A DNA stretch of 64,000 nt from Patescibacteria group bacterium (GCA_028716665.1 JAQUPP010000001.1:349046-413045); one strand, 5' to 3'. Numbered from the stretch's first letter, positions 9,652 to 44,761 are shown. Translations and numbers: made by a program. Notes: a model not told the origin generated them from the sequence alone.

Positions 9652-9667
9652 TTTCTAATTTCTAATC
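9648..9667. repeat. Left inverted repeat CTAATTTCTAATTTCTAATC (two TTTCTAAT units) flanking the four-helix-bundle gene. It overlaps the ftsK stop codon.
   Basis: Read directly from the sequence. Its reverse complement matches 10066-10094 on the other side of the ORF. Confidence 0.75.
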
Positions 9668-9690
9668 AAATCCCAATAACTAATGTTCAA

Positions 9691-10047
9691 ATGGCTAAAA
9701 ACAAATACGATTTAGAAGAAAGAACAGCAAAATTTGGCGAAGAAATCATTAAGTTTGCTAAGAAAATTCCAGAAAATGCGGTTAATAAACCTTTAATACC
9801 GCAATTAGTTAGAGCAGGAACTAGCGTAGGAGCAAATTATTGTGAAGCTGATAATGCTGAATCTAAAAAGGATTTTAAACACAAAATTGGAATTTGCAAA
9901 AAAGAATCAAGAGAAACCAAACATTGGTTGAGAATAATAGTTATTGCTGCGCCCGAACTAAAGGAAGAGGCAAGAATTTTATGGCAAGAAGCAAAAGAAT
10001 TAAATTTGATTTTTAATGCCATTGTTCATTCAATAAACAATAAATGA
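9691..10047 (+). CDS. Four-helix-bundle protein of the 23S rRNA intervening-sequence protein family (PF05635 / TIGR02436-like).
   Basis: 118 aa. Shows the characteristic N-terminal YDLEERTAKFGEEIIKF, then RAGTSVGANYCEA and KKDFKHKIGICKKESRETKHWLRI. Confidence 0.8.
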   Translation: MAKNKYDLEERTAKFGEEIIKFAKKIPENAVNKPLIPQLVRAGTSVGANYCEADNAESKKDFKHKIGICKKESRETKHWLRIIVIAAPELKEEARILWQEAKELNLIFNAIVHSINNK

Positions 10048-10065
10048 TTTGGTTATTAGACATTG

Positions 10066-10094
10066 ATTAGAAATTAGGTCAATTAGAAATTAGA
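10066..10094. repeat. Right inverted repeat GATTAGAAATTAGGTCAATTAGAAATTAGAT (two ATTAGAAATTAG units), the reverse complement of the left repeat.
   Basis: The 12-mer ATTAGAAATTAG occurs at 10067-10078 and 10082-10093. Its reverse complement is CTAATTTCTAAT, which is present at 9648-9659. Confidence 0.75.
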
Positions 10095-10104
10095 TATTTT
10101 TTTT

Positions 10105-10776
10105 ATGGCTTTTAGAACTCAATCCATTAAATTTGAAAGTTTGGGCACCATTTTGCGCGATAAAAGAATATCAGAAAGTTGGAGCTTGGAAGATGTTGAA
10201 AAAAAAATAGGCGTGCCGGCTAAATATTTACAATGCATAGAAGAAGACGAATTTTATAAATTGCCCAGTCCGACTTACACCAGAGGATTTTTATTGCAAT
10301 ATGCCGAATTATTGAGATTTAATCCGGAGGAAGTTGTTAATTTGTGGAAAAAAGAATATTCTTATTCGGCTATAAAAGAAACAAAAAACAAGAGAGTCAG
10401 AAAGTTGCCCTTGGTTGAATTCGGCAAAGAAAAATTTTTTGATATTTTCAATTCAAGATATTTTTTTATAGGTTTGGTTTCGTTGGGAGTTCTTCTTTAT
10501 CTTTTTTTCGGTATAAAAAAATTAATGTTTCCGCCGGAGATTCAGCTTTTTTCGCCCAGAACAAATTTGGTTACTCAAGAAACTGCCTTGGTGATTGAAG
10601 GGAAGGTGGGCGAAGGAGTGGATGTATTTATTAACAAGCAAAAGATTGAAGATATGACAGATAATTATTTTAAGGTGAAATTGGAACTTGAGAGAGGCAT
10701 AAATAATATTGAAATTTCGGCCAAAAAGAAATATTCAAGAGAACGAATCATTAAGCGCCAAATTATTGTAGAATAA
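10105..10776 (+). CDS. RodZ-like cytoskeleton/morphogenesis protein with an XRE-type HTH, one TM helix and a DUF4115-like C-terminal domain.
   Basis: N-terminal [46 protein letters not shown] (RodZ signature), TM segment [18 protein letters not shown], and a beta-rich C-terminus. Confidence 0.6.
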
Positions 10777-10781
10777 AATAT

Positions 10782-11780
10782 ATGAAAAATAAAAAAATAG
10801 CTTTTATTACCGGTATAACGGGCCAAGACGGCTCTTATTTGGCGGAATTGCTTTTAGACAAAGGATATGAAGTGCATGGATTGGTTCGTCGAAGCAGTAA
10901 TTCCAATTTGGAAAGAATTCAATATTTATTGGATAATCCTATTTATCAAAAAAGAATTTTTCTTCATTGGGGTGATTTATCTGATGCCAGCCGTCTTTTT
11001 CATTTAATTCAAGATATCAGACCGACTGAAATTTATAATTTGGCCGCTCAAAGCGATGTTAGAATCAGTTTTGACATGCCGGCTTATACAGCCGACGTAA
11101 CAGCGGTCGGAGTTTTAAGAATTTTGGAAGCTATCAGAAAAATAGATAAAAAAATTAAATTTTATCAAGCCAGTTCAAGCGAAATATTCGGTAAAATTAA
11201 AGAATTTCCTCAAAGCGAAAAAACCGAATTTCATCCGCGCAGCCCTTACGGCGTGGCGAAACTTTACGGTTATTGGATAACAAAAAATTATCGCGAAAGT
11301 TATGGTATTTTTGCTTGCAATGGCATTTTATTCAATCATGAATCTGAGCGCAGGGGAGATAATTTTGTTACGCGGAAAATAACTAAGGCCGTGGCCAGAA
11401 TCAAATTGGGATTGCAAAAAGATTTAATAATGGGAAATTTGGATGCTCAACGCGATTGGGGTTATGCGCCGGAATATGTCAAAGCGATGTATTTAATGCT
11501 GCAACAGAAAAAAGCGGATGATTTTGTGATCGCGACAGGCGAGACACATTCGGTTAAGGAATTTATTGAAGCAGCATTCAAATCCGCGGGGTTAGATTGG
11601 AAAAAATATGTTAAGCAAGATAAAAAATATTTGCGTCCGGCTGAAGTTGATATTTTGTGCGGCAATATTGCCAAAGCAAAAAAAGTTTTAAATTGGCAGC
11701 CCAAAATTAAATTTAAAGAATTGGTGAAAATAATGGTTGAGTCAGACATTGAATTAGCAAAAAAAGAACTTAAAAAATAA
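10782..11780 (+). CDS. gmd: GDP-mannose 4,6-dehydratase.
   Basis: [61 protein letters not shown]. These are canonical Gmd motifs. Confidence 0.9.
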
Positions 11781-11802
11781 AATTAATAATTTAAAATAAT
11801 AT

Positions 11803-12828
11803 ATGGTTAAAAAAGAAGAAGAAAAAAAAGAAGACAAAACAACTGATCGTCAAAAAGCCGCTCAATCGGCGATTGAACAAATACAATCCAGATTCGGCGA
11901 AGGATCAATTATGAAATTGGGTGAGGCCAGAAAAATGGACGTAGAAGTTATTCCTACCGGATGTTTATCTTTGGACTTGGCTTTGGGCGCGGGCGGAGTG
12001 CCAAAAGGAAGAATAATTGAAATTTTTGGTCCGGAAATGTCAGGTAAAAGCACTCTAGCACTTTATGTGGTGGCTGAAGCTCAAAAAATGGGCGGAGTTG
12101 CCGCTTATGTTGATGCTGAGCACGCTTTAGACCCGGAATATGCCAAAAAAATAGGAGTTAAAATTGATGATCTTTTAATTTCTCAACCAGACACCGGAGA
12201 ACAGGCCTTAGAGATTGTTGAGACCTTAGTTCGCTCTAATGGCGTAGATGTGATTGTGATTGATTCTGTGGCTGCTCTGACGCCGCAAAAGGAGATTGAG
12301 GGGGAAATGGGCGATTCGCAAATGGGCTTGCAAGCGCGGTTAATGAGTCAGGCTTTAAGAAAATTGACAGCCATTGTCAGTAAAACTCACACTTGCGTTA
12401 TTTTTATCAATCAAATCAGAATGAAAATTGGCGTATTTTTCGGCAATCCGGAAACCACTACCGGTGGAATGGCTCTTAAATTTTATTCTTCAGTGCGAAT
12501 TGAATTGCGTCGTTTAGCCCAACTTAAAAGAGGCGAAGATGTGATAGGAAATAAGGTCAGGGTTAAAATAGTTAAAAATAAAGTTGCTCCGCCGTTTACG
12601 ACCTGTGAATTTGAAATTATGTACAATGAAGGAATTTCGCGAACAGGAGATTTGATAAATCTCGGTTTGAAATATAATTTGGTTAAAAAGACAGGTAATA
12701 CTTTGAGTTATGGCGATATCAAACTTGGCGTTGGCCAAGAAGCTCCTAAATTATTTTTGAAAGAAAATCCAAAAATCGCTCAAGAGCTGAAAAAGAATAT
12801 TATTCAGGCGGCTAAAGAAAAGAAGTAA
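11803..12828 (+). CDS. recA: Recombinase RecA.
   Basis: [17 protein letters not shown] (Walker A), [32 protein letters not shown]. Confidence 0.95.
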
Positions 12829-12863
12829 GCAAATAAGCTTACCAAGAAATAAGTTAAATAAAT

Positions 12864-12900
12864 AAAAATATCCGGGATTAACCGGATATTTTTATTTATT
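12864..12900. terminator. Bidirectional rho-independent terminator between convergent recA and the Wzz-like gene. Perfect 12-bp stem AAAAATATCCGG/CCGGATATTTTT, loop GATTAA, and a T-tract.
   Basis: Inverted repeat 12864-12875 / 12882-12893 followed by TTTATTTATTTT. T/A runs are present on both strands. Confidence 0.75.
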
Positions 12901-12915
12901 TTGTCTATTTTTTAT

Positions 12916-13848
12916 TTATGCTTGTTTGCTTTTACTGAAATATTCAGCGCCAAATGCCCAGAGAAGGCTAATAAATAATCCAAGAATTCCGGCAATCGCC
13001 ACGTTTTGCGTTCTTTTGGGTGCGATTCTTATATCGGGCGGGGTGGCAGGCACTTCAATGGTTGTTGACTTTACTTGATAAGTTTTTTCGTATTCTTTTT
13101 GTTGAAGATTTTGATTAAGACTGATTAATTGCTGTTCAAGATCAGAAATTTGCTGTTCTTTTTGATCTTTTTGGTTTTTAGTATTTGCTAAAAGTTGAAT
13201 ATAGGCCTCAGTTATTCGGCCTTGACCCTCAGATTGCGCTTCGGCTCGCTCGCTGATTTCTTTGGTATAAAATTTTACATCATTATTAAGGCGGATTATT
13301 TCTGTTTTTGTTTGTTCAATATCTTTTTTAATTTTTTCTTGATTAGCGGCAATAGTTTTTATTTCCAGATTAAAAGTTTTTTCGGCTTCTAAAAATAAGT
13401 TTTGATGTCGTTGAATCAATAATTCCGCGATTAGATTGGACACCTCCGCCGCTTTTTGCGGTGTTTGTCCAAATCCTTTTATTTTTAAAAAAGATGATCC
13501 GTCTCCCTGTTCTATGGAAAACATTTTAGCCACTTTTGCTTGCGAAATCGTAGATGGAAAATTTAATTTTGTGGCAATTGTTTCTAAAATAGTTTTGCGA
13601 GAAAAAATATCTTTAATATCAGCTACATTTTCTAAATTAACCAATGCATCTTGATTTTTTATCTGTCCCAATTTAACCAAGGTCACCGCCTCAAAAGTTT
13701 GGGGGAGCCGCAGGTTGATTATTACCGAAACAATGGCTATAACGAGGAAAATAGTAATAATTGCCCATTTTCTTTTTAGGACAACATTAATATAATCTCT
13801 TAAATCAATTTTTTCTTCATTATTGTAATTTTTTTCTTGATTTTCCAT
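12916..13848 (-). CDS. Polysaccharide chain-length determinant (Wzz/GumC-type polysaccharide co-polymerase). N- and C-terminal TM helices flank a coiled-coil periplasmic region.
   Basis: KIDLRDYINVVLKRKWAIITIFLVIAIV (Wzz N-terminus with TM1), a long coiled-coil, and a C-terminal TM VAIAGILGLFISLLWAFGA. Confidence 0.7.
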   Translation of the reverse strand: MENQEKNYNNEEKIDLRDYINVVLKRKWAIITIFLVIAIVSVIINLRLPQTFEAVTLVKLGQIKNQDALVNLENVADIKDIFSRKTILETIATKLNFPSTISQAKVAKMFSIEQGDGSSFLKIKGFGQTPQKAAEVSNLIAELLIQRHQNLFLEAEKTFNLEIKTIAANQEKIKKDIEQTKTEIIRLNNDVKFYTKEISERAEAQSEGQGRITEAYIQLLANTKNQKDQKEQQISDLEQQLISLNQNLQQKEYEKTYQVKSTTIEVPATPPDIRIAPKRTQNVAIAGILGLFISLLWAFGAEYFSKSKQA

Positions 13849-13862
13849 ATTTTTAATTTTTG

Positions 13863-15722
13863 TTATTTATACGTCGGAATAATTTCTTTTAATATTTTAA
13901 TTATACTATTTTTATCCATTTTATCAAGGGCTTGTTTAAATTTTTCTAATCCCCGGATTATTTTTTGTTCATCAAAATTAGAAAGTTTGGCCATGAATAT
14001 TTTTTCATGTTTGGTCGGTATTTCGGAATTTGTTAAAATTTCTTCAAATAATTTTTCACCCGGACGCATTTGAGTAAAAACAATAGGAATATCAACATCA
14101 GATTCATAACCTGCTAAACGGATCATTTCTTTTGCCAGATCCACTATTTTAATCGGTTGACCCATGTCTAAGACAAAAACTTCACCACCTTGACCCAGCG
14201 CGCCGGCTTGCATTACCAATAAACAAGCCTCGGAAGTGACCATAAAATATCTTTTCATCTCCGGATGTGTGACTTCAACTGGACCGCCTTTTTTAATTTG
14301 TTCTTCAAAAATTCCAACCACATTGCCTTGACTATCCAGAACATTACCAAAGCGAACAGCGCAGAATTTAGTCAGATTTTTTTTATTTAACCAAAGACAA
14401 ATCATTTCTCCGACTTGTTTAGTTGCGCCCATAACAGAGGTAGGATTAACAGCTTTATCGGTAGAAATGAGAACAAATTTATCTACTCCATGTTTTGTCG
14501 CTGCTTGAGCCAATGTTAACGTGCCAAAAACGTTATTTTTAATAGCTTCTAATGGATGTGATTCCATTACCGGTACATGTTTATAAGCCGCAGCGTGAAA
14601 AATAACATTTGGTTTTTCTGTTTCAAATAGCCAATTTATTTTTTTTTCATCGCAAATATCGCCAATTTCAAAACTTTTTGCAATATTCGGAAATTCTTTA
14701 TTAAGGTTTCTTCCAAGATGAAAAAGTCCGGTTTCATTTTGATCAAAGGCGATAAGGCGGGCAGGATTAAATTTTAAAATTTCTTGACAAAGATGCGAGC
14801 CGATAGAACCGGCAGCGCCGGTAACCAATATTGTTTTTCCACTAATAAAATTTTGAATAGCTTGGGTGTCAATTTTAATCGCTTCTCTGCCCAGTAAATC
14901 TTCAATTGAGACATCGCGCAACTGATTTAAGCTTACTTTTTCAGCTAAAATTTCTCTTGTACCGGGTAAAATTTTAATTTTTTGAATACCGGCTTCGCGG
15001 GCTAATTTTACGGTTTCTCTGATAATTTCTTGCGGAGCTGATGGCGAAGCAATAATTAATTCTTTAATTTCGTGTTTTTTAACGATTTTCGGAATATCAA
15101 TTCTTTTGCCTAAAACTTTTTTCCCATGAATCAACACTCCTTGCTTCATAAGATTATCATCAATTAAGCCGACAATAGCATAAGGGCTGTCTTTGGAGGT
15201 AATAATATGTCGCACTAATTGTTCAGCAGCGTCATCGGATCCAACAATTAAAACAGGCCTGAGACGCGGAGCGCTGCGTTGAAATTCTTGAAGATAAATT
15301 CTCTTAGAAAAACGTAATCCGCCGGTTAAGAAAAATGTTAAAAAGGCGGTAATAAAAATAATAGAACGGGGGAATCCTTCAAAAAGAGGAAAAATTTTTA
15401 AAATATAAATAGTTGTTCCAATTAAAAGGAAGCTGATTATTACGGCTCGTCCAAGTTTAAAAAGTTCTGAAATACTAACAAAAGACCAACTAATGGCATA
15501 AAGTTTTTCCAGCCAAAAAAAGAAAATAATTAACGGAATAGTCAGTTCAATAAATCCTTTTATCATTGGAATATATTGAACCGGAATCTTGCCGTCAAAA
15601 CGCAGTAAAAAACTTAGCCAACAGGCTAGTATTATAAAAGCAACATCGCCAAGCAAAAAGAAAAACGTTCTTTTGGCTGTTGTACGCGCAAAAATTTTTT
15701 GTTTAAGTTTTTCTAGAACCAT
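13863..15722 (-). CDS. Membrane-anchored UDP-GlcNAc 4,6-dehydratase/epimerase of the WbpM/PglF/CapD family.
   Basis: Four N-terminal TM helices, followed by a Rossmann motif ILVTGAAGSIGSHLCQEI and SDR-type YK catalytic residues (AAYKHV). Confidence 0.85.
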   Translation of the reverse strand: MVLEKLKQKIFARTTAKRTFFFLLGDVAFIILACWLSFLLRFDGKIPVQYIPMIKGFIELTIPLIIFFFWLEKLYAISWSFVSISELFKLGRAVIISFLLIGTTIYILKIFPLFEGFPRSIIFITAFLTFFLTGGLRFSKRIYLQEFQRSAPRLRPVLIVGSDDAAEQLVRHIITSKDSPYAIVGLIDDNLMKQGVLIHGKKVLGKRIDIPKIVKKHEIKELIIASPSAPQEIIRETVKLAREAGIQKIKILPGTREILAEKVSLNQLRDVSIEDLLGREAIKIDTQAIQNFISGKTILVTGAAGSIGSHLCQEILKFNPARLIAFDQNETGLFHLGRNLNKEFPNIAKSFEIGDICDEKKINWLFETEKPNVIFHAAAYKHVPVMESHPLEAIKNNVFGTLTLAQAATKHGVDKFVLISTDKAVNPTSVMGATKQVGEMICLWLNKKNLTKFCAVRFGNVLDSQGNVVGIFEEQIKKGGPVEVTHPEMKRYFMVTSEACLLVMQAGALGQGGEVFVLDMGQPIKIVDLAKEMIRLAGYESDVDIPIVFTQMRPGEKLFEEILTNSEIPTKHEKIFMAKLSNFDEQKIIRGLEKFKQALDKMDKNSIIKILKEIIPTYK

Positions 15723-15736: not shown

Positions 15737-16906
15737 TTATTTCTGATAAAATTTTTTAATATTTTCAACCACCCAATCTATTTGAGTATTGGTTAACTCA
15801 GGATACATTGGCAAAGAGATAACTTCATGGCAGATTTTTTTCGTTTCCGGAAGTTCTACGGCAATACCTTTGGTTGATACTAATTTAGGCATTCCGAATT
15901 CTTGATTAAATTTAGAACTAGCAAATACAGGTTCTTTATAAGTTGGCGAGGGCCAAGAAATAAGCGTTTCAATGCTTTGTTTTTCTAAATATTTTTTAAG
16001 TTCATCGCGGCGTTCGGCTCGAATTACATAATTGGTATAAATGTCGGAAAAACGATTATCGTCAAAATGAGGGAGTTTGATTTGCGGAATATTAGCCAAT
16101 CCTTGTTGATATTTTTTAGCGATTTCCTTGCGCCGTTTAAGCCATGTCGGAAAATATTTGAATTTTACATTTAAAAGTGCAGCGTGCAAGTTATCCATTA
16201 AAAGATTGTGGCTGTGATAATAAAAATGGCGTTTTCTCCGATCTTCGCCATTATAGCGCATTAATTTTACTGCTTCGGCGATTTTGGAATCATTGGTAAC
16301 CAACATACCGTTATTGCCCCAGCCACCCAAGGTTTTGGCCCAATAAAGACTAAAACAACCGGCTGTACCGAAAGAACCGGCTTTTTTATTAGTACCATCC
16401 GACATTTTTAAAGTGGCACCCAGAGCTTGTGCGGCATCTTCAATAACCATAAGTCCTTTTCGTTTGGCAATATCCATGATTACTTCCATATCGCATAAAC
16501 GGCCGTTCAAATGGACGGGCTCAATAGCTTTTGTTTTTGGCGTTAAAGCTTTTTCAATTAATTTTGGGTTCATATTAAAGTCGTTGCCGACATCAATAAG
16601 AACCGGTTTGGCTCCGGTCAAATAGACACAAGAAAGGCTGGCAATGAAAGTGTGGGCGACGGTTATTACTTCGTCATTTTTTTTAATACCAGCTGCTTTT
16701 AGCCCAAGATAAACGGCTGAAGTTCCAGAATTAACGCCAATCGCATATTTAGTGCCGACAAATTCAGCAAAATCTTTTTCAAATTTTTCCAAATCTTTGC
16801 GCATTACAATATCACCACGCGAAAGAACATCGTCAAAAGTTTGAATAAATTCTTTGCGATGGTCTTGATATTGTTTTTGTGGATTGGCGAAACGAACTTT
16901 ATACAT
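15737..16906 (-). CDS. DegT/DnrJ/EryC1/StrS-family PLP-dependent sugar aminotransferase.
   Basis: NSGTSAVYLGLKAAGIKKNDEVITVAHTFIAS and the overall DegT architecture. Confidence 0.85.
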   Translation of the reverse strand: MYKVRFANPQKQYQDHRKEFIQTFDDVLSRGDIVMRKDLEKFEKDFAEFVGTKYAIGVNSGTSAVYLGLKAAGIKKNDEVITVAHTFIASLSCVYLTGAKPVLIDVGNDFNMNPKLIEKALTPKTKAIEPVHLNGRLCDMEVIMDIAKRKGLMVIEDAAQALGATLKMSDGTNKKAGSFGTAGCFSLYWAKTLGGWGNNGMLVTNDSKIAEAVKLMRYNGEDRRKRHFYYHSHNLLMDNLHAALLNVKFKYFPTWLKRRKEIAKKYQQGLANIPQIKLPHFDDNRFSDIYTNYVIRAERRDELKKYLEKQSIETLISWPSPTYKEPVFASSKFNQEFGMPKLVSTKGIAVELPETKKICHEVISLPMYPELTNTQIDWVVENIKKFYQK

Positions 16907-17909
16907 AGTTTAAAATATTTTTTACCTTTTTAATTACATCTTTAGATGTTAAATAATAAGCTTGTTCTAATATTTTACTGACCGGTGCAGGACAATCAGG
17001 CAGGCAAAGTCTTTCAATTGGTGCTTTAAGATATTTAAAAGATTGCCTTGCTATCTGACTATTAATTTCACTACTAATACTACCGCTAGACCAAGCAGCT
17101 TCGGTGATAAGCAAACGGCCCGTTTTTTTAACCGATTTAATAATTAGAGGAATATCTATGGGCCAAGCGCTTCTTAAATCAATTATTTCAGCATCGATTT
17201 TTTGTTTTCTTAATTCTGCTGCCGCTATTAGCGCTTCTTTGACCATATAAGAAATGGCTACAATAGTGATATCTTTCCCGATTTTTCTGATTGCGCCCTT
17301 ACCGATGGGTACTGAGTATATTTTTTGCGGTACATGATCTTTGACATCATAAAGCCAGCGATCGTCAATATAAATGACAGGATTAGGGTCACGAATAGCA
17401 GAAATCATTAATCCTTTGGCGTCATAGGCAGTTGCCGGCATTACTACTTTTAATCCGGGAATATGAGTGAATAGAGATTGAAGGGCCTGAGAATGTTGAG
17501 CACCTTGTTCACCGCCACGATTAATAATAGCACGAATAACTACATCTGCATTAGCTTTTCCTCCAAACATATAGTGCCAATTTGCTGCTTCATTTATAAT
17601 CGGATCAAGAGCATACATCATAAAATCCATTCGAGGAAAAATAACAATAGGTTTCATGTTAACCATTCCAGCTCCTATTCCTACACCCGTTGTTACATTT
17701 TCAGAGATTGGTGTGTCCATAACCATTTTGGGACCGAATTTTTTTAATAGATCACGGCAAGTATTACCGACATACCAAGGACTTTTTACCCCCTGACCAA
17801 TAACAAAAACAGATTTATTTTTTGACATCATTTGATAAACTGCTTCATTAATAGCCAAGCTATATGAGAGAAATCTTTTATTTATTTGTTTTTTATTTTT
17901 TAAAAACAT
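16899..17909 (-). CDS. TPP-dependent 2-oxoacid dehydrogenase E1 beta-like subunit (transketolase pyrimidine-binding domain plus C-terminal domain).
   Basis: Length and motifs of E1-beta (VIGQGV..., FGGEQGAQHSQ, C-terminal transketolase-C domain). It overlaps and is translationally coupled with the E1 alpha-like gene. Confidence 0.75.
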   Translation of the reverse strand: MFLKNKKQINKRFLSYSLAINEAVYQMMSKNKSVFVIGQGVKSPWYVGNTCRDLLKKFGPKMVMDTPISENVTTGVGIGAGMVNMKPIVIFPRMDFMMYALDPIINEAANWHYMFGGKANADVVIRAIINRGGEQGAQHSQALQSLFTHIPGLKVVMPATAYDAKGLMISAIRDPNPVIYIDDRWLYDVKDHVPQKIYSVPIGKGAIRKIGKDITIVAISYMVKEALIAAAELRKQKIDAEIIDLRSAWPIDIPLIIKSVKKTGRLLITEAAWSSGSISSEINSQIARQSFKYLKAPIERLCLPDCPAPVSKILEQAYYLTSKDVIKKVKNILNYV

Positions 17910-18882
17910 ATTTTAATAGTTCATTTTTTTTAGGATAAGGACTGTGACGAGAAAAGGTTTTAGCTTGCTCAATTTTTTTATTTATTTTTTGATAATTTTT
18001 TTTAATTTTAGATTGATCTAAAAATTTATTTTTGATCAAAAATTTTTCCATTTTTTTTATAGGATCCCTTTTTTTCCATACTTCAATTTCTCTTGATTTC
18101 CTTATATCAGTGTGCGTTCCTTGAATATTGTCGTCTGGTCCAACATGACCACGCATACGGTAGGTTAAAAATTCGATAAAAGCCGGCCCCTTATGTTTTT
18201 TAATTTGAGTAATCATTTTTTTGGCGGTTTCAAAAACTTTAATTACATCATTTCCATCAGCACGTACTGATTTAATGCCATAAGTTTTTGGCTGAAGATA
18301 AATTTTTGGATTAGCCAATGATTCTGTAATCGGCATATGGGTAGCATATAAATTATTTTCGCAAATAAATAAAATTGGTAATTTATGTAAAGCGGAAAAA
18401 TTAAATGCTTCCGAAATTACTCCTTCGGCCGTTGCCCCATCACCAAAAAAAGTAACAGTTAAACGATTCTTTTTTTTAATTTTTAAAGCCAAGGCCGTAC
18501 CAACAGCAAGGGGAACAGTACCTGCAATAATTGGGGTGGCTCCTAAAAAACCAGCCTTTTTGTCAATAATATGCATTGATCCTCCTCTGCCTCGCGAGCA
18601 GCCAGTTGATTTACCAAAAATTTCGGACATTAAAGCTTTTAGGTCTCCACCTTTAGCTAAATAATGACCGTGTGAACGATGATTGCCAAAAGCATAGTCT
18701 TTTTTATTTAAAGCCGCACAAACCCCGACTGCAACGGCTTCTTCTCCGGTATAAAGATGGCAGGGTGTTTTAATTTCACCACTTAAAATTGGCTCAATTA
18801 AACTCTCTTCAAATAAACGAATTTCCAACATTTGCTGATAAAGTTTAAGTAAAAATGATTTTGAATATTTTGATTTTGTCAT
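17893..18882 (-). CDS. TPP-dependent 2-oxoacid dehydrogenase E1 alpha-like subunit.
   Basis: HLYTGEEAVAVG, RSHGHYLAKG, GRGGSMH, and the TPP-binding GDGATAEG...ENNLYA motif. Confidence 0.8.
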   Translation of the reverse strand: MTKSKYSKSFLLKLYQQMLEIRLFEESLIEPILSGEIKTPCHLYTGEEAVAVGVCAALNKKDYAFGNHRSHGHYLAKGGDLKALMSEIFGKSTGCSRGRGGSMHIIDKKAGFLGATPIIAGTVPLAVGTALALKIKKKNRLTVTFFGDGATAEGVISEAFNFSALHKLPILFICENNLYATHMPITESLANPKIYLQPKTYGIKSVRADGNDVIKVFETAKKMITQIKKHKGPAFIEFLTYRMRGHVGPDDNIQGTHTDIRKSREIEVWKKRDPIKKMEKFLIKNKFLDQSKIKKNYQKINKKIEQAKTFSRHSPYPKKNELLKYVFKK

Positions 18883-18995
18883 TTTGTTTTAGTTAAATAA
18901 AAATTATTTTCCCTTAATGTATTCAGTTTATTCTTTAATAATATTAGAGAATTATAGCGATTTGTCAAGTTTGTTTGGTTATATGAATTTATTCA

Positions 18996-20258
18996 TTATA
19001 ATTTAAAATTATTTTTTTTCCAATAATTTAGCCATTTATTAAGTCGTTTAAATCCTGTTTTAATATTTTTAGGATTACCAGCAAAAGAAAATCTAAGATA
19101 TCCTTCGCCTTGTGGACCAAAAGCAGCACCGGGTATAACAATAACCTTGGCTTCATTTAAAATTTTTAAAGCCATATCAAATGAATTAATTTTAGCTCCT
19201 TTGACCTTAGCCATAATATAATAAGCTCCTGCCGGTTTTTGATATTCAAAAAATTCTTTTAATTTATCTAATTCTTGACACATTAAATTGCGATTTTTAT
19301 CCATCTGTTTGACTAATTCAACTGTTGATTTTTTTGATTCTTTTTGATTTTTCAGGGCATAAATTACCGCCTTTTGAGAAATAGCCGGCGAACAAATCGC
19401 CAAAGCATCGTGAACTTTGAGCATATGATCAATAATTCCTTCGTCCGCGAAAGCATAACCGACGCGATAACCGGTCATACGATATTTTTTAGAAAAACTT
19501 CCGCAGAGAATGACGCGGTCGCGAATATTTTTAACGGATGCCGGCGAAAATAATTTTGCGTCATCATAGAGAAGAAAATCGTAAGTTTCATCAGCAATTA
19601 AAATCAAATCATATTTTTTGACAAAATTAGCCAATTCTTGTATTTCTTGTCGGTTAAAAACCGCGCCAGTCGGGTTAGAAGGATTGCATAAAATTACAAC
19701 TTTGGTTTTGGAGGTGCGGGCTTTTTCAAAATTTTTAATATTCAGATGCCAGCCGTTTTTTTCAATTAATGGAACAAATTTTGGAACGCCGCCAAATTGT
19801 AAAATTTGTTCTATTTCAGAGGCATAGGTTGGTGAAGGCAACAAAATTTCGTCACCTTCGTCAATAGTTGAAGCCAAGGCGCAAGCCATGGCTTCTTGGC
19901 AACCGACAGTCACCATAATTTCTTTCTTTGGTTTTATATTTTTTATTTTTTTTGAGGACTCTAAATTTTTAGCGATTAATTTTCTTAATTCCGTAATGCC
20001 GGGCTCAAGGGTGTATTTTGAAGTATCTACTTTTTTAATTGATTGAATAATTCCTTTTTTAATATATTGAGGCGTGTCTAAATAGGGGATTCCTTGCCCA
20101 AAAGAAATGATTTTATTAAGACCAATTTTTTCTTCCAATTGGTCGGCCAGAATTGACATTTCCTTAATTGGGGAAATGACAATTTTTTTGACTCTTTGAG
20201 AAATATTTTTTGTCCGAAATTTTTTTCCGGCGGCAGCGATAACTGAACGATATTTCAT
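18996..20258 (-). CDS. Class I/II (aspartate-aminotransferase-fold) PLP-dependent aminotransferase.
   Basis: ISPIKEM near the N-terminus, SFSKKYRMTGYRVGY (PLP-lysine region), and AAFGPQGEGYLRFSFA. Confidence 0.75.
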   Translation of the reverse strand: MKYRSVIAAAGKKFRTKNISQRVKKIVISPIKEMSILADQLEEKIGLNKIISFGQGIPYLDTPQYIKKGIIQSIKKVDTSKYTLEPGITELRKLIAKNLESSKKIKNIKPKKEIMVTVGCQEAMACALASTIDEGDEILLPSPTYASEIEQILQFGGVPKFVPLIEKNGWHLNIKNFEKARTSKTKVVILCNPSNPTGAVFNRQEIQELANFVKKYDLILIADETYDFLLYDDAKLFSPASVKNIRDRVILCGSFSKKYRMTGYRVGYAFADEGIIDHMLKVHDALAICSPAISQKAVIYALKNQKESKKSTVELVKQMDKNRNLMCQELDKLKEFFEYQKPAGAYYIMAKVKGAKINSFDMALKILNEAKVIVIPGAAFGPQGEGYLRFSFAGNPKNIKTGFKRLNKWLNYWKKNNFKL

Positions 20259-22931: not shown

Positions 22932-24157
22932 ATTATTTCTTGAATAATTTTTTCTAATTTATTCACTAGAACGGGAATACTATGGTATTTTTCCACATAT
23001 TCTTTACCATTTTGGCCCATTTTTTCTCTCTCTTCAAGTGACGTTTGGCAGAGATGGACAATAGCATCAGCCATTATTTGAGGGTTTTCCGGTGAAATTG
23101 AAATACCGCAATCAGCTTCTTTAACTGGATTATTGGCGGCATTAACTGAGAAAATTATCGGTTTAACAGCTGCCATATAATCAAATAGTTTATTAGAACT
23201 AATGCCATATTTAAAAACTTCAGTTTTTTTGAGATTAAAGATTAATGTATCAGCTTCGTTAAGAGAAGTATAAACTTCGTCTTTGCTTAGGGAATCGCGA
23301 AATTCAGTATTTTTAAGCTGAAGTTCATTTTTATATTTTATAAGATTTTTTTTCTCCGATCCATCGCCGATAAATATAAATTTTATTTTTTCGTATCCCG
23401 TGTCCTGAATGATTCTGGCTGCGTCCAAAACATAATTTAAGGCATTTGCCAAACCGTGAGCGCCAAAATACATGACTTTAAATTTTTCATCAGTTGTTTC
23501 TTTTTTGGAAATATTTTTGAATTTTGTTAAATCAACCCCGTTAGGAATCCAAACAATTTTTTTTTCATCTATGCCCAAGGCGGTTATGTATTTTTTGGCC
23601 AAAGGCAATAAGGTAATTATTTTTTTGGCCTTTTTATATAAAAATTTTTCTAAAATTCTAAGGGTTTTAACAATTAAATTATTTTCTTTTAAATTTCCCA
23701 TATCAACCAGTGTTTGGGGCCAAAGATCCCTTACCTCCATTAAGAATTTTGCTTTGTAATATTTTGTCAGCCAATATGCCGAGAGGACGGCCAGTAAATG
23801 AACCGAAGAGCCGATAATAATATTCGGTTGTTCAATATTTTTGTTTATTTTGGTTATTTTTTTTCCGAGGCAATATGTTCGACACATGTACGAAAACATA
23901 TTTATCACTCTTTGCCAATCATTTTTTTGATAGGGAAAAGTTTTTATCCAAACAAAATTTATTCCATCAATGTTCTCTATAAGATATTTTTCATTTTTAG
24001 TTAATTTAATTTCCCGGCGTAAACTAAAATGAAAGCTAGAGGCGAATATGGTCACCTCGTGTCCTCTTTTTACTAATTCTTTGGCAAAATCATAATGCCT
24101 GGTGCCGCTGGGCATATCAGGAGTAACAGCATAATGATTTAATATCCAAATTTTCAT
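22928..24157 (-). CDS. Family 4 (GT-B) glycosyltransferase, WbuB-like.
   Basis: N-terminal KIWILNHYAVTPDMPSGTRHYDFAKELVKRGHEVTIFAS and a C-terminal GT-B sugar-donor domain. Confidence 0.7.
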   Translation of the reverse strand: MKIWILNHYAVTPDMPSGTRHYDFAKELVKRGHEVTIFASSFHFSLRREIKLTKNEKYLIENIDGINFVWIKTFPYQKNDWQRVINMFSYMCRTYCLGKKITKINKNIEQPNIIIGSSVHLLAVLSAYWLTKYYKAKFLMEVRDLWPQTLVDMGNLKENNLIVKTLRILEKFLYKKAKKIITLLPLAKKYITALGIDEKKIVWIPNGVDLTKFKNISKKETTDEKFKVMYFGAHGLANALNYVLDAARIIQDTGYEKIKFIFIGDGSEKKNLIKYKNELQLKNTEFRDSLSKDEVYTSLNEADTLIFNLKKTEVFKYGISSNKLFDYMAAVKPIIFSVNAANNPVKEADCGISISPENPQIMADAIVHLCQTSLEEREKMGQNGKEYVEKYHSIPVLVNKLEKIIQEII

Positions 24158-26016
24158 TTTTGATAATTATAGATAAACTTTCTTCCCCACAATTCTAAAA
24201 TATAAAAACGCAAAAATATAGTTTTGTTGTAAAAAAATCGCTGGCCCATTTTGTATTTTTGGAACGAATCAAGTAATTTTTCCGTGTTGACATAATCGGC
24301 AATAAACAGAGGATTCTTAAATTTTAATTCAATATCTTCGGTTAAATATTTTTTATACCACATTTCTTCGGGAGTAACAAAGCCGAGTTTGCTTTTTCTG
24401 AGCCTTATTTTCTCCGGCAGGATATTTTTCATAGCTTCTCTTAATATGAATTTCGTCCAACCAAGCCGCATTTTTTGATCAAGAGGCATTTTGGCGGCTT
24501 GTTCTACCAATCTATAATCTAAAAACGGCAATCTCGCCTCAAGGCCGAATGTTCCGCTATTTTTATCTTCATATCGGAGAAGAACCGGCAAGCTCCATTT
24601 GGTTAAATCTTCTTTAAGACGCTTGCCGAGATTATTTTGATAACCGAATTTTAATTTTCTATCAGTGAAATTTTTTGAAAAGACAGGATTTAAAAGATTA
24701 TCAATGCTGTCGTTTTTTGATATTTTAAACAGATATTTTAATCCGCTTTTTATGTACAATGTTTTTAATATTTCAATGGAGGTAAAGAAAGGCAGAGCTG
24801 TTTCAAGGCACTTAATAAATTTTTTATTTCTAAAAAGCTTTAATAAATAAAAGAAATAAAATTTTCTATAGCCAGCCAATAATTCGTCCCCCCCTTGGCC
24901 ATCCAGCAATATTTTTACTTTTTCTCTGGCTTTTTTGAACACCATTCGTTGGGCAAACATACTCGTTCCAGAAAATGGTTCTTCTTGGTGCCAAATTAAA
25001 TTATCTAATTCTTTAAGGAATTCTTCGGGCTTCGGGAATATATAGTTTTTTTCAGCTCCGGTATGTTTAATGACTTCCTCAATATATTCTCTTTCGTCAA
25101 ATTTTTTATTTTCAAAACAAGAAGAAAAAGTTTTTTGTATTTCTCCAATACTCGGGACATTTTTTTCTTTAAGGAGTTTATTAACCGTGCAAACAATGGA
25201 AGAGGAATCTAAACCTCCGGAAAGACAGGAACCGATTGGAACGTCGCTTCTCAGGCGCAGTTTTATGGTATCAATGAATAATTCACGAAATTGTTCGGTA
25301 TATTTTTGGTCAGGAACTTTATCTTCTATTTTATCAGAAACTTCGAAATCCCAATATTTTTCAATTATTATTTTACCATCTGACGTAAGTTTGAGCCAGG
25401 AGGACGCCGGAAGTTTATAAATATTTTTAAAAAATGTTTCATTCGTATGGTCAAGCATTCCAAATTTTAAAAAATCATAAATTAATGCGTCGGTCGGTTT
25501 TTGAGGGATACCTAATTCTAACAGGGCTTTTATTTCCGAAGCAAAAGTAAAAATTTTACCATCAAAAAAATAATAAAACGGTTTTATGCCAAATCTATCC
25601 CGGCTGCAAAATAATTCTTTTTTATTTTTATCCCAAATAGCGAAAGCCCACATTCCGTTGAATTTTTCAAGACATTTTTCACTCCATTCTTTATAAGCGT
25701 GCAAAATAACCTCCGTGTCGGTATTTGATACGAAAATATGACCGCATTTCTCCAATTCTTTTCGCAATTCAAGGTAGTTATAAATCTCTCCGTTAAAGAC
25801 AATCCACAAAGTTTCATTTTCGTTTGTCATTGGTTGATGTCCGGCCATGGAAAGATCAATTATAGATAAACGACAATGTCCCAGGCCAACATTTTTATCA
25901 ATAAAATACCCCTCATCATCCGGGCCGCGATGTTTTATAATTTTGACCATTTTTTCTATATCTTTTTTGTCCACCAATTTTTGGTCCAAATTGACGGTTC
26001 CGACTATTCCACACAT
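24154..26016 (-). CDS. Glutamine-hydrolysing asparagine synthetase AsnB-family amidotransferase. In this context it is likely a uronic-acid amidotransferase of the WbpS/WbpG type.
   Basis: N-terminal MCGIVG (Ntn cysteine) and the PP-loop SGGLDSS. Confidence 0.85.
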   Translation of the reverse strand: MCGIVGTVNLDQKLVDKKDIEKMVKIIKHRGPDDEGYFIDKNVGLGHCRLSIIDLSMAGHQPMTNENETLWIVFNGEIYNYLELRKELEKCGHIFVSNTDTEVILHAYKEWSEKCLEKFNGMWAFAIWDKNKKELFCSRDRFGIKPFYYFFDGKIFTFASEIKALLELGIPQKPTDALIYDFLKFGMLDHTNETFFKNIYKLPASSWLKLTSDGKIIIEKYWDFEVSDKIEDKVPDQKYTEQFRELFIDTIKLRLRSDVPIGSCLSGGLDSSSIVCTVNKLLKEKNVPSIGEIQKTFSSCFENKKFDEREYIEEVIKHTGAEKNYIFPKPEEFLKELDNLIWHQEEPFSGTSMFAQRMVFKKAREKVKILLDGQGGDELLAGYRKFYFFYLLKLFRNKKFIKCLETALPFFTSIEILKTLYIKSGLKYLFKISKNDSIDNLLNPVFSKNFTDRKLKFGYQNNLGKRLKEDLTKWSLPVLLRYEDKNSGTFGLEARLPFLDYRLVEQAAKMPLDQKMRLGWTKFILREAMKNILPEKIRLRKSKLGFVTPEEMWYKKYLTEDIELKFKNPLFIADYVNTEKLLDSFQKYKMGQRFFYNKTIFLRFYILELWGRKFIYNYQK

Positions 26017-27570: not shown

Positions 27571-28690
27571 TGGCGAAAATTATTTCGTAAATTTTTAATA
27601 ATTTTTTGGCTTCCAAATCCCAGTTGTATTTTTCTAAAATTGCTTTTTTGCCGTTTTCTCCCATTTTTTTTGCTTCTTCGGGATGTTTTATTAAATATTC
27701 AATCGCTTCGCCAATCTCTTTCGGATCCAAAGGATTAACACAAATTCCACAATTATTTTTCTCAATGATTTCTTTCCATAAAGGAAAATTTGAAGCAATG
27801 ACGGGCAAACCGGCCGTCATATATTCAAACATTTTAACCGGCAAACTGCTTAAAAAGCATCTATTAGGGTGAAGACAAACAATGCCAATATCCGCTTTGG
27901 CAATTTCTTCAAAAACCTTATTTAAAGAAAGTTCTCCCAAAAAATTTACTTTTGTATATTCTTCAGAACATGCGATTTTCTGTTTTAAAATTTCATTTGA
28001 AAATCTCCCCATCAAATTTAATGAAATTTTGTAATGGCTATTTATTAATTCCATGGCTTTTATGATTTCTTCAATGCCTCTGTTTTTTCCGATTGTTCCG
28101 GTATAGATTAAAACGCATTCATTATTCGCGAAAAAATTATTTTTCGATGTTTTGGAATTAAATTTTAAGAGCGGGTAATTTTTTATCTCAATAACGTTAT
28201 TATTGTATGGTTTAAATTGATCTTTGATATATTCAGTGGCGACGATTATACAATCAAAAAATTTAGATATATTTTTTTCTATAAAATTAACAGTGGAAGA
28301 TAGGGGATGCTTAAAAATCACCGGAATCCATTCTTTGTACAAAATGTCCTTTGGTACATCTTCGTGCACATCATAAATAATCTTGGCTTTTGTAAAAATT
28401 TTTAATAAAACGCCGACTAATATTAGTTCCGGATCATGAAAGTGATAAACGTCCGCTCTTTGTTCCAGCGCTTTTTTGAAAATTAAAAAATCTGTCTTTA
28501 AAAATCTTTCAAGGCGATTTTTTAATTTTGGCAGAGCGATAATTTTAATTCCGTCCACTGTTTCGTTTTTGTCATGTCGGGCGATTAAAGTAACATCATA
28601 ACCAGCCCCAGCTAGAGTTTTGGCTTCTTTGTGAAAAATACGAACATCAAATACGGAGTGGACGGCGGTTATTTGGCAGCATTTTTTCAT
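27560..28690 (-). CDS. Family 4 glycosyltransferase.
   Basis: E-X7-E-like region MFEYMTAGLPVIASNFPLWKEIIEKNNCGI. Confidence 0.75.
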   Translation of the reverse strand: MKKCCQITAVHSVFDVRIFHKEAKTLAGAGYDVTLIARHDKNETVDGIKIIALPKLKNRLERFLKTDFLIFKKALEQRADVYHFHDPELILVGVLLKIFTKAKIIYDVHEDVPKDILYKEWIPVIFKHPLSSTVNFIEKNISKFFDCIIVATEYIKDQFKPYNNNVIEIKNYPLLKFNSKTSKNNFFANNECVLIYTGTIGKNRGIEEIIKAMELINSHYKISLNLMGRFSNEILKQKIACSEEYTKVNFLGELSLNKVFEEIAKADIGIVCLHPNRCFLSSLPVKMFEYMTAGLPVIASNFPLWKEIIEKNNCGICVNPLDPKEIGEAIEYLIKHPEEAKKMGENGKKAILEKYNWDLEAKKLLKIYEIIFANEK

Positions 28691-38699: not shown

Positions 38700-38706
38700 T
38701 TTATAT

Positions 38707-44145: not shown

Positions 44146-44173
44146 ATAAAAATTAAATTATTAAGTTGATAAA

Positions 44174-44761
44174 TTATATTTGCTTGACTGTCTTTTTTTC
44201 TTTTAAATATTTTTTGCCGCAAATTTTACAAACGGATTTATTGTTTTTAAATTGCAACTTGTTGCCGCAATCGCAAACCCAATCATGAACAGCAGCCGGT
44301 ACACCGTAAGCCAAAGCGTAATCAGGGATATCTTTAGTAACAACCGAACCGGCACCGATAAAAGCGCTTTTGCCGATGGTGGCGCCGCAAACAATTGTGG
44401 CATTGGCGCCGATTGATGCGCCTTCTTTAACCAAAGTGGATTTCCATTTGCCGTATTCCGGATATTTTTTCTTTGGAAATTTTGCGCGCGGATTAGGATC
44501 ATTGGTGAAAACCGCCGACGGTCCGACAAAAACATAATCTTCCAAAGTAACTAAATCCCAAGCGTCAACATTGGATTCCAATTTAACGCCATTGCCCATT
44601 TTTACTTGGCCGCCGACAAAACAATTATGTCCGACCATGCAATTTTCGCCGATTTGCGCGCCGGCTAAAACCTGGCTGTTTTGCCAAATTTTTGTCCCGG
44701 AACCGATTTTTGCTCCCGGTGAAACTTCTGCTGATGAATGTGTCCAAAATTTTTTTTCCAT
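44174..44761 (-). CDS. Left-handed beta-helix (hexapeptide-repeat) sugar N-acetyltransferase (WbpD/PglD-like) with an appended C-terminal zinc-ribbon.
   Basis: Hexapeptide repeats IGENCMVGHNCFVGGQVKMGNGVKLE. The C-terminal extension is WVCDCGNKLQFKNNKSVCKICGKKY. Confidence 0.8.
   Translation of the reverse strand: MEKKFWTHSSAEVSPGAKIGSGTKIWQNSQVLAGAQIGENCMVGHNCFVGGQVKMGNGVKLESNVDAWDLVTLEDYVFVGPSAVFTNDPNPRAKFPKKKYPEYGKWKSTLVKEGASIGANATIVCGATIGKSAFIGAGSVVTKDIPDYALAYGVPAAVHDWVCDCGNKLQFKNNKSVCKICGKKYLKEKKTVKQI

Follow-up and report, generated by a model that had tools for sequence, protein, structure and literature searches.

A stand-alone E1-alpha/E1-beta pair in a Patescibacteria surface-glycan cluster: a putative thiamine-dependent carboligase for a C-4-branched nucleotide sugar

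The window analysed here, a 64,000-nucleotide stretch of DNA from a Patescibacteria genome, carries a 34-kb surface-glycan cluster that houses an E1-alpha/E1-beta gene pair (Table 1). The initial annotation had reported this pair, and the open reading frames agree with it exactly: both products have Pfam E1 domains, the thiamine diphosphate (ThDP) motif is present, and direct reading of the sequence places the ATG of E1-beta 17 nt ahead of the E1-alpha stop codon, giving a 17-nt gene overlap. The gene that follows, for a DegT-family aminotransferase, overlaps E1-beta by 8 nt. The neighbours originally described are likewise in place, with a WbpM/PglF-type dehydratase and the DegT on one side, and an aminotransferase, a second DegT and a WecA-like transferase on the other. 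Both E1 genes are full-length and high-scoring and cannot be chance matches; a protein of 100% identity has been recorded in a Patescibacteria MAG (P0001, GCA_028713475.1).

Table 1. The E1 pair and its neighbours, in coordinates of the window
Feature	Length	Position	Strand	Supporting match or detail
PglF/WbpM-type membrane-anchored UDP-GlcNAc 4,6-dehydratase	619 aa	13863..15722	(-)	PF02719 3.7e-108, PF13727
Cassette DegT aminotransferase	389 aa	15737..16906	(-)	PF01041 3.4e-96; PLP lysine motif 'FSLYWAK'
E1-beta	336 aa	16899..17909	(-)	PF02779 6.8e-28, PF02780 2.2e-35
E1-alpha	329 aa	17893..18882	(-)	PF00676 E1_dh 1.7e-66, residues 21-318
Promoter-like site TTGACA-16/17-TAATAT		18941..18968	(-)	10/12 consensus positions; 113-nt gap upstream of E1-alpha
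Class I amino-acid:2-oxoacid aminotransferase	420 aa	18996..20258	(-)	PF00155 1.1e-61
Second DegT, PseC/PglE-like	377 aa	20269..21402	(-)	TIGR03588 (PseC) 368 bits
WecA/MraY-family initiating transferase	309 aa	21399..22328	(-)	PF00953 1.6e-33
GNAT acetyltransferase	196 aa	22341..22931	(-)	PF13508, PF00583

The ThDP motif GDG-x26-NN is intact in E1-alpha ('FFGDGATAEG...FICENNLYA'), in which GDG147-149, E175-N176-N177 and His246 are conserved; a match to PF02775 is weak (7.3e-06) and is confined to the thiamine-binding stretch. E1-beta retains the catalytic Glu70 and His139. Sixteen residues in alpha and 22 in beta (W45 Y46, N130 R131 and E134 Q135 of beta, for example) are specific to the family of related pairs described below, and many of them lie in loops around the conserved His246 of alpha and Glu70 and His139 of beta. 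The signature of E1-alpha in this family consists of V247, G248, P249, D251, Q254, D259 and I260, in the loop past His246, together with T181 and H182.

The top database matches of the pair are pyruvate dehydrogenase (PDH) E1 models and the human and Geobacillus PDH E1 structures. It shares with the E1 components of pyruvate, branched-chain 2-oxoacid and acetoin dehydrogenases a common fold, the thiamine motif and the catalytic Glu and His, at 34-45% identity, but differs from them in the lack of E2 and E3, in scores below the model cut-offs, in forming its own clade and in its family-specific residues. Against the NCBIfam PDH model TIGR03182, E1-alpha scores 331.2 bits (cut-off 393.85), while E1-beta scores 313.4 bits against NF006667 (cut-off 321) and 308.5 against a second NCBIfam PDH model (cut-off 454). 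The active-site His used for lipoyl reduction in the complexes is kept here; it is present in both kinds of E1 and is therefore non-discriminating.

Partners of a dehydrogenase complex were sought with phmmer (E<=1e-3) using three E2, two E3 and one lipoate-ligase reference proteins; in the window, all stop-to-stop reading frames of at least 60 aa were scanned. No match to E2, E3 or lipoate ligase was obtained in the 64-kb window and 91 related loci (1.2 Mb), which confirms the earlier statement that the pair has neither E2 nor E3 nearby. By Pfam, the lipoyl and 2-oxoacid_dh families are absent from the unassigned reading frames of the cassettes (28 of 29 scanned). In all four reference pairs (L092, L093, L094 and L096), E2 adjoins. 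Judged from its sequence, its gene context and its place in the trees below, the pair is not a central-metabolism dehydrogenase.

The pair belongs to a tight clade with 49-85% identity. Within this family, pairwise E1-alpha identity is at least 49% (median 62%), as against 45% or less between the family and E2-linked pairs. In trees built by neighbour-joining only, on a small reference set that holds plasmid-borne pairs picked by gene context and omits AviB1/B2, Pau11/12 and KbDH, the family forms one split apart from four E2-linked references in 50/50 bootstraps for alpha, 50/50 for beta and 200/200 for the concatenated proteins. Three further pairs that lack E2 group with it in 182/200 bootstraps (concatenated, neighbour-joining), and two of these three adjoin DegT genes in sugar clusters. 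With the references used, the clustering with bona fide PDH or acetoin dehydrogenase E1 that the initial annotation had named as evidence against its own reading was not seen. Carriers number at least 80 species, which represent a dozen or more phyla, the best 80 of about 590 genome hits having been inspected (83 loci, not phylogenetically independent), and the family probably spans about 590 species. The cassette is kept in Desulfobacterota, Bacteroidota, Patescibacteria, Omnitrophota, Elusimicrobiota, Nitrospirota and Planctomycetota, among others.

The conserved order of this cassette is phosphoglycosyl transferase, E1-alpha, E1-beta, tailoring enzyme and PglF-like 4,6-dehydratase. The PglF-like gene of the window lies two genes downstream of the E1 pair, and a homologue is found within 6 kb of the pair in 18 of the 29 fully flanked loci. 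All 29 fully flanked relatives have a PglC-like Bac_transf gene; no PglC-like transferase is present in the 64-kb window, where the WecA/MraY-type transferase probably stands in for that of the other genomes. Pfam searches of unassigned cassette reading frames found neither a 3,4-ketoisomerase nor a second oxidoreductase, and a hexapeptide acetyltransferase is absent from the window cassette and from the unassigned cassette genes of its relatives.

The second DegT is rare beside the E1 pair elsewhere (3/80 loci), and in a relative that is 85% identical (L010) two inserted genes part it from the E1 genes; it is probably the ring C-4 aminotransferase of a separate bacillosamine-type sugar, outside the conserved cassette. 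The GNAT gene is lineage-specific, with a homologue near the E1 pair in only one of 80 other loci, and its product might N-acetylate one of the newly formed amino groups. The window also codes for a uronic-acid module and an AsnB-like amidotransferase. Promoter-like sites occur in the region at chance level (39 found, 39.3 by shuffle), and the one upstream of E1-alpha is weak evidence of a separate transcription unit running from E1-alpha to Wzz.

The tailoring slot is occupied by DegT in 60 loci or by an aldo-keto reductase in nine, and never by both; DegT comes directly after E1-beta in 37 of the 63 loci with enough sequence. Among solved structures, the closest relatives of the cassette DegT are the C-3-type sugar aminotransferases QdtB, DesV, WlaRG and WbpE (190-270 bits), compared with only about 95 bits for PglE and PseC. 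Against the PseC model it scores 190 bits, and the other DegT of the window 368. From its context, the DegT adjacent to the pair most likely acts on a new branch ketone rather than on ring C-4. In six reductase-type loci, no aminotransferase was found in flanks of roughly 10 kb on either side (6.8 kb downstream in L081), and the E1 substrate therefore cannot be an amino sugar. The E1-alpha proteins of reductase-type loci are scattered among those of DegT-type loci in the tree, which suggests that the E1 pair catalyses one and the same reaction in the two variants. The cassette reductase was considered as an orthologue of Pau7, but it is AKR11-like whereas Pau7 belongs to AKR5I, and the two are regarded as analogous.

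The class I aminotransferase has the 'SFSK' lysine and the 'YLRFSF' arginine, and among solved structures it is closest to the Pyrococcus aromatic and aspartate aminotransferases. Such a gene is present in 28 of the 60 DegT-type cassettes and in none of the nine reductase-type ones. It was dropped as an orthologous core part, as at least three unrelated subfamilies with about 30% mutual identity are represented, and it is counted as an accessory member of the cassette, upstream of the pair.

We consider it probable, on the combined analysis, that the E1 pair is a stand-alone, heteromeric ThDP carboligase of the E1 (alpha-keto acid dehydrogenase 2) type that adds a pyruvate-derived acetyl group at C-4 of UDP-4-keto-6-deoxy-HexNAc, with transamination to follow. 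Dehydration of UDP-GlcNAc at C-4 and C-6 is an established activity of the PglF family, and the PglF-like dehydratase would convert UDP-GlcNAc to UDP-2-acetamido-2,6-dideoxy-hexos-4-ulose. Since E1-alpha resembles PDH-type E1-alpha, pyruvate is the expected donor. By context and precedent, E1-alpha/beta would decarboxylate it to hydroxyethylidene-ThDP, which would be added to the C-4 ketone to give a tertiary alcohol at C-4 and a 4-C-acetyl branch. The adjacent DegT may then transaminate the branch carbonyl to yield a 4-C-(1-aminoethyl) sugar, and in the sister cassettes the aldo-keto reductase may produce the 1-hydroxyethyl form instead. As PglF makes the sole carbonyl, and ThDP carboligation uses it and yields one new ketone, a single tailoring enzyme suffices. 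Speculatively, the class I aminotransferase could use alanine and 2-oxoglutarate to form pyruvate and glutamate, which would feed the carboligation and the transamination; that it supplies pyruvate and regenerates glutamate is a guess. The initiating transferase would finally pass the sugar phosphate to undecaprenyl phosphate, starting a Wzx/Wzy-type surface glycan. The proposal made at the outset, that a stand-alone AviB1/AviB2-like pair transfers a C2 unit from pyruvate to a keto-sugar, is thus supported by the lack of E2/E3, the sub-cut-off scores, the separate clade and the conserved sugar cassette.

E1-type pairs are known to put C2 branches from pyruvate on antibiotic sugars, the branch ketone then being reduced or transaminated (PMC12247030). 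The aldo-keto reductase Pau7, for example, reduces a C-4' acetyl branch that is itself the proposed product of Pau11/Pau12 (PMC4753412). The pair described here is likened to AviB1/B2, Pau11/12 and KbDH by gene context and description, not by sequence: each is a two-subunit E1 without E2 or E3, with a sugar 4,6-dehydratase nearby and a single predicted branch-ketone tailoring enzyme, reductase or transaminase, following it. The DegT-or-reductase logic of the cassette thus appears to match that of antibiotic sugars such as those of paulomycin and kibdelomycin. The antibiotic genes, however, belong to actinomycete antibiotic clusters and act on dTDP-deoxyhexoses, whereas the present pair shares a surface-glycan cassette with a phosphoglycosyl transferase of the initiating kind, would act on a 2-acetamido sugar bound to UDP, and occurs in anaerobes and members of candidate phyla, most of them uncultured.

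The proposed chemistry is also like that of ErwE, MMAR_2332 and YerE/YerF, the last from the yersiniose A pathway of Yersinia pseudotuberculosis, in which an activated acyl unit is added in a ThDP-dependent step to a surface-polysaccharide 4-keto-6-deoxy nucleotide sugar and the branch ketone is then reduced (PMC9306805). YerE is, however, a single chain of the decarboxylase (acetolactate-synthase-like) superfamily that works on CDP-3,6-dideoxy sugars, whereas the E1 here is split into alpha and beta and does not have the single-chain TPP_enzyme_N, M, C architecture. With the PglF-PglE-PglD-PglC cassette for di-N-acetylbacillosamine in Campylobacter and Neisseria, the present one shares the same dehydratase, a DegT-family enzyme and a compact arrangement, and relatives of the window cassette also share the small PglC-type initiating transferase. 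It differs in having the E1 pair and no PglD acetyltransferase, and in a DegT that appears not to be of the PglE/PseC type.

Some of the same observations could be read in other ways. If acetyl branching at C-4 holds, the DegT might nevertheless aminate the ring, either in this intermediate or in a parallel one, in which case the 4-C-acetyl group would be kept or two sugars made. Ring ketones are the main known substrates of DegT-family enzymes, and the nearest relatives of the cassette DegT include the ring C-3 aminotransferases QdtB, DesV and WbpE. The cassettes, however, encode no 3,4-ketoisomerase or second oxidoreductase, so that no other ring ketone is on offer, DegT and reductase share one slot and are mutually exclusive, and kibdelomycin provides a precedent for transaminating a branch ketone (PMC12247030); this outcome is considered unlikely. 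It is rather less probable again that the E1 pair replaces PglD, with the DegT or reductase making a 4-amino or 4-hydroxy sugar on which acetyl-ThDP then acetylates N-4 or O-4. Although the layout is that of PglF-PglE-PglC without an acetyltransferase and the E1 pair sits in the place of PglD, the route from pyruvate to acetyl-ThDP requires an acceptor for two electrons, for which no gene is present; nor does the cassette DegT appear PglE/PseC-like, and reductase-type cassettes have no aminotransferase. We know of no E1-type enzyme that carries out N- or O-acylation, and the ring 4-ketoreductases of solved pathways are short-chain dehydrogenases rather than aldo-keto reductases.

The uronic-acid module and AsnB-like amidotransferase of the window, together with the fact that small molecules are the substrates of class I aminotransferases, would fit a pair that makes a free acyloin or aldehyde (acetoin, for instance), which is aminated and attached as a non-sugar substituent such as a uronic-acid amide. 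Across loci, however, these genes do not accompany the pair (none of the 29 that are fully flanked has AsnB within 6 kb), the conserved partners are instead the dehydratase and the initiating transferase, and the product of the reductase variant would be a diol that could not be attached, all of which makes this explanation improbable to a marked degree. Least credible, and by our estimate very improbable indeed, is that the pair is a conventional dehydrogenase E1 (of the pyruvate, branched-chain or acetoin complex) with its E2 and E3 encoded elsewhere, and lies in a glycan cluster by accident. The best matches to PDH E1 models and structures and the retained catalytic His speak for it; against it stand the same neighbourhood in at least 80 species of many phyla, the lack of linked E2 or E3 at any inspected locus, equivalog cut-offs that are not reached and a clade apart from the E2-linked pairs. 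To our knowledge, moreover, Patescibacteria generally lack 2-oxoacid dehydrogenase complexes.

Returning to C-4 branching followed by tailoring of the branch ketone, a wider reading can be put forward tentatively, and as a whole we are inclined to doubt it: that the cassette represents at once a new class of eight-carbon sugar, the first lipid-linked sugar of surface glycans and a closed E1/DegT/class I cycle. The sugar would be a C-4-branched 2-acetamido-2,6-dideoxyhexose bearing a 1-aminoethyl group, or a 1-hydroxyethyl group in the reductase variant, and it would be made across a dozen phyla by hundreds of species, mostly uncultured ones, minimal-genome Patescibacteria included. The net reaction of the cycle would be keto-sugar + L-alanine -> aminoethyl-branched sugar + CO2, and in at least one lineage (L016) the sugar would also feed PglB-type protein glycosylation. 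Literature searches found no bacterial glycan with a 4-C-(1-aminoethyl) or 4-C-(1-hydroxyethyl) HexNAc, and we know of none. Searches on aminoethyl- or acetyl-branched sugars turned up only amycolose, the sugar of kibdelomycin, and those tying E1 or thiamine to O-antigen, capsule, bacillosamine, DegT or undecaprenyl returned nothing relevant; the cluster survey of Krug et al. (Angew. Chem. 2024), reportedly the key one for branching-enzyme gene clusters, lay outside their scope.

The predicted UDP-sugars have masses of 634.129 Da and, for the reductase variant, 635.113 Da, which can be searched for in the glycans of cultured carriers such as the Thermodesulfovibrio strain of CP144374.1. Caution is needed in metabolic reconstructions of candidate phyla and anaerobes, in which these genes should not be counted as 'pyruvate dehydrogenase'. 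For biocatalysis, they offer a new and well-conserved family of putative ketone-accepting ThDP carboligases. Until now, YerE-type enzymes have been linked with the C-branched sugars of bacterial surface polysaccharides, and E1-type branching with actinomycete antibiotics (PMC12247030). If the proposal is true, E1-type branching would also be widespread, and of ancient origin, in the synthesis of cell-envelope glycans, and would occur in a cassette that normally makes initiating sugars of the bacillosamine type.

The E1-alpha and E1-beta genes lie on the minus strand of the window, where a cluster for glycan biosynthesis spans about 34 kb (12916-47056), and sit at exactly the coordinates given to them by the initial annotation. 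The start codon of E1-beta falls 17 nt within the E1-alpha gene. A DegT aminotransferase (the cassette DegT) and a PglF/WbpM-type 4,6-dehydratase are encoded downstream, followed by a Wzz protein and a terminator that separates the cluster from the convergent recA gene. Upstream of E1-alpha is a class I aminotransferase gene and, further away, genes for a PseC-like DegT, a WecA-type initiating transferase, a GNAT protein, glycosyltransferases and an AsnB-like amidotransferase. An identical E1-alpha is present in the database record of a Patescibacteria MAG (GCA_028713475.1).

Features of the window and of the related loci L010, L016 and L097
Feature	Position	Strand	Details
Terminator	12856-12901		perfect strong hairpin, 20-bp stem; T-runs flanking on both strands (bidirectional)
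PglF/WbpM-type 4,6-dehydratase	13863-15722	-	
Cassette DegT	15737-16906	-	8-nt overlap with E1-beta
E1-beta	16899-17909	-	336 aa; PF02779 at 6.8e-28, PF02780 at 2.2e-35
E1-alpha	17893-18882	-	329 aa; PF00676 at 1.7e-66; GDG...ENN thiamine motif
Class I aminotransferase	18996-20258	-	
AsnB-like gene	24154-26016		
Heparinase II/III-C5-epimerase fusion	28687-32871	-	1394 aa; heparinase II/III C-terminal and glucuronyl C5-epimerase C-terminal (1.6e-43) domains
FemAB-like transferase and polysaccharide-deacetylase-like gene	37842-39600	-	
WbpA/B/D/E/I-like module	41967-47056	-	UDP-GlcNAc 6-dehydrogenase, GFO/IDH/MocA oxidoreductase, hexapeptide acetyltransferase, DegT, UDP-GlcNAc 2-epimerase
Second Wzx flippase; Wzy_C/O-antigen-ligase protein	47194-50916	+	TPR repeats in the latter
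PF05635 gene, window	9691-10047	+	
PF05635 gene, L010	15053-15406		
PIG-L-type deacetylase and DUF218 genes, L010	8070-9842		
STT3/PglB-type oligosaccharyltransferase, L016	5487-7742		PF21436 at 1e-13
E2-less E1 pair with neighbouring genes, L097 (pSGRIFU1)	9016-14546		

The remainder of the cluster contains a full WbpA/B/D/E/I-like module, which predicts that this glycan also contains a sugar of the 2,3-diacetamido-mannuronic-acid type, a possible substrate for amidation by the AsnB-like enzyme. The heparinase II/III-C5-epimerase fusion is unusual for a Patescibacteria glycan cluster. The FemAB-like and deacetylase-like genes, together with the second Wzx and Wzy_C genes on the opposite strand, point to modification with peptides or by deacetylation, and perhaps to two glycan products.

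The nearest homologues are about 60% identical, though they come from widely different phyla. When one genome per species was scanned with two family-specific peptide motifs, at least 600 stretches emerged, and tblastn confirmed 590 of them. Neighbourhoods were examined for the best 80 of these 590, ranked by match to this query; they belong to Desulfobacterota, Bacteroidota, Patescibacteria, Omnitrophota, Elusimicrobiota, Nitrospirota, Planctomycetota, Calditrichota and others. Carriers include a cultured Thermodesulfovibrio strain (genome CP144374.1). Once neighbours are labelled by phmmer, a recurring order emerges: a PglC-like phosphoglycosyl transferase, E1-alpha, E1-beta, DegT, in many loci a class I aminotransferase, a methyltransferase or both, and a PglF-like dehydratase. 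The window differs from its relatives in having a WecA-type rather than a PglC-type transferase. Among 29 fully flanked loci (3 kb or more upstream, 5 kb or more downstream), all have an initiating transferase near the E1 pair, 22 have DegT, 18 a dehydratase within 6 kb and 14 a class I aminotransferase. Unassigned ORFs of 120 aa or more number just 29 across all these cassettes; the 28 scanned against Pfam are for the most part selfish or unrelated genes, with no E2, E3, acetyltransferase or keto-isomerase among them.

Four of these 28 ORFs match PF05635 (‘23S rRNA-intervening sequence protein’), some also matching bAvd; such small genes recur beside or inside the glycan cassettes in the window, in L010 (the 85%-identical relative) and in four other loci, and NUMOD3 and toxin-antitoxin genes are likewise present. 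In L010, inserted genes for a PIG-L-type deacetylase and a DUF218 protein separate E1-alpha from the class I aminotransferase, and this insertion marks where two sub-units of the cluster meet. A locus from Desulfohalobiaceae (L016) encodes an oligosaccharyltransferase between DegT and the PglF-like gene; here the proposed branched sugar may serve at the reducing end of glycans in a protein glycosylation system.

From its sequence and surroundings, the pair very probably does not belong to a dehydrogenase complex. Both subunits score under the curated NCBIfam PDH thresholds (331 against 394 for E1-alpha, 313 against 321 for E1-beta). References for E2, E3 and lipoate ligase came from three plasmid-borne operons with E2 next to an E1 pair. 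Against all stop-to-stop ORFs in the window and in 91 related loci, together 1.2 Mb, they gave zero matches at E<=1e-3, in agreement with the earlier observation that E2 and E3 are missing nearby. The catalytic residues beta Glu70, alpha His246 and beta His139 are all conserved, and so the pair should be active as an enzyme. These residues were rejected as a discriminator, as they do not separate dehydrogenase E1 from stand-alone E1.

Within the family, E1-alpha identity is at least 49% (median 62%), whereas identity to E2-linked references, an Azospirillum pair and human PDHA1 is at most 45%. A single split unites the family in 50/50 neighbour-joining bootstraps for each subunit and in 200/200 for the concatenation. 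A phylogeny had been advised by the initial annotation; with a small reference set of four E2-linked pairs and three plasmid-borne E2-less pairs, the family grouped with the E2-less pairs in 182/200 bootstraps, apart from the E2-linked ones. Two of these E2-less pairs are from Azospirillum (L095) and Solidesulfovibrio magneticus (L098). The third, from Streptomyces griseofuscus (L097), adjoins genes for a condensation-domain protein, a phosphopantetheinyl transferase and an acyl carrier protein, a non-sugar context in the same superclade. At sixteen alpha and 22 beta positions, conservation within the family reaches at least 95% and the residue is unlike that of every E2-linked reference. These positions cluster in the loop after alpha His246, within residues 247-260 (‘GHVGPDDN’), at T181 H182 just past the NN motif, and at beta ~43-50 and 130-135 beside the catalytic His. 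By analogy with PDH E1 structures, these loops presumably form the wall of the acceptor entry channel.

In antibiotic biosynthesis, E1-type (alpha-keto acid dehydrogenase 2) pairs transfer a C2 unit from pyruvate onto keto-sugars (PMC12247030). The resulting branch ketone is reduced in paulomycin, trioxacarcin and avilamycin, transaminated in kibdelomycin, or otherwise modified; for the kibdelomycin pair, coupling of pyruvate to ketones has been demonstrated in vitro (PMC12247030). The branch-reducing enzyme of paulomycin is an aldo-keto reductase (PMC4753412). By analogy, every step of this branching logic appears to be present in the cassette. The PglF-like dehydratase would make the sole carbonyl, carboligation by the E1 pair would turn it into a tertiary alcohol and one new ketone, and a single tailoring enzyme would handle the latter. 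Because this scheme mirrors the antibiotic one, it is proposed that the E1 pair catalyses 4-C-acetylation of UDP-4-keto-6-deoxy-HexNAc. In the window, the 4-C-acetyl branch would then be transaminated to give a 4-C-(1-aminoethyl) sugar. A search of solved structures with the cassette DegT is topped by QdtB, DesV and WbpE, with PglE and PseC far lower. The window's second DegT resembles PseC, and in L010 two inserted genes part it from the E1 unit. That the cassette DegT ranks apart from PglE and PseC, while the PseC-like enzyme is separable, is counted as support for branch transamination.

A variant of the cassette bears on the tailoring step. Seven fully flanked loci lack DegT, and in six of them an aldo-keto reductase (312-351 aa for the cassette enzymes; PF00248, E about 1e-60 to 1e-71) directly precedes E1-alpha. 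L091 (9039-11957) is an example of this reductase-type cassette. Across 83 loci, 60 have DegT only, nine the reductase only and none both; the 14 with neither are mostly truncated contigs, one having a class I aminotransferase only. The exclusivity is significant by Fisher's exact test (p = 2.5e-6), a value that is indicative only since the loci are related. Reductase-type loci contain no aminotransferase within roughly 10 kb on either side (6.8 kb downstream in L081), and therefore an amino sugar cannot be required by the E1 pair. In the tree, reductase-type E1-alpha sequences are interspersed with DegT-type ones, which argues that the E1 reaction is probably common to both variants and that the tailoring enzyme alone is exchanged.

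The class I aminotransferase accompanies 28/60 DegT-type and 0/9 reductase-type cassettes (p = 0.009). These enzymes are non-orthologous: the type in the window is common to only three other Patescibacteria loci, and two other clusters are YbdL/kynurenine-aminotransferase-like. In the window's enzyme, two motifs of amino-acid aminotransferases are present, those of the PLP lysine and of the arginine that binds the carboxylate. That generic amino-acid transaminases were recruited repeatedly, and solely alongside DegT, suggests a supply role. One guess is that alanine and 2-oxoglutarate are converted to pyruvate and glutamate, feeding the E1 pair and DegT respectively; speculatively, the net reaction would be keto-sugar plus alanine to aminoethyl sugar plus CO2.

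In its proposed function, the pair comes closest to the E1 branching pairs of antibiotic pathways and, by analogy, to YerE/YerF; in architecture the cassette is of the bacillosamine type with the acetyltransferase replaced by a predicted C-C bond-forming enzyme. No description of this cassette was found in the literature consulted, and the predicted branched sugar is not known there from any glycan. More distant E2-less pairs (about 40% identity) lie beside DegT, epimerase/dehydratase and nucleotidyltransferase genes. On an Azospirillum ramasamyi plasmid (L095) the order is oxidoreductase, E1-alpha, E1-beta and DegT; on pDMC1 of Solidesulfovibrio magneticus (L098) it is kinase, E1-alpha, E1-beta, a fucose-synthase-like gene, DegT, dehydratase and nucleotidyltransferase. 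Given these sugar-gene contexts, E1-type branching may recur among cultured bacteria in several surface-sugar pathways that are independent of one another.
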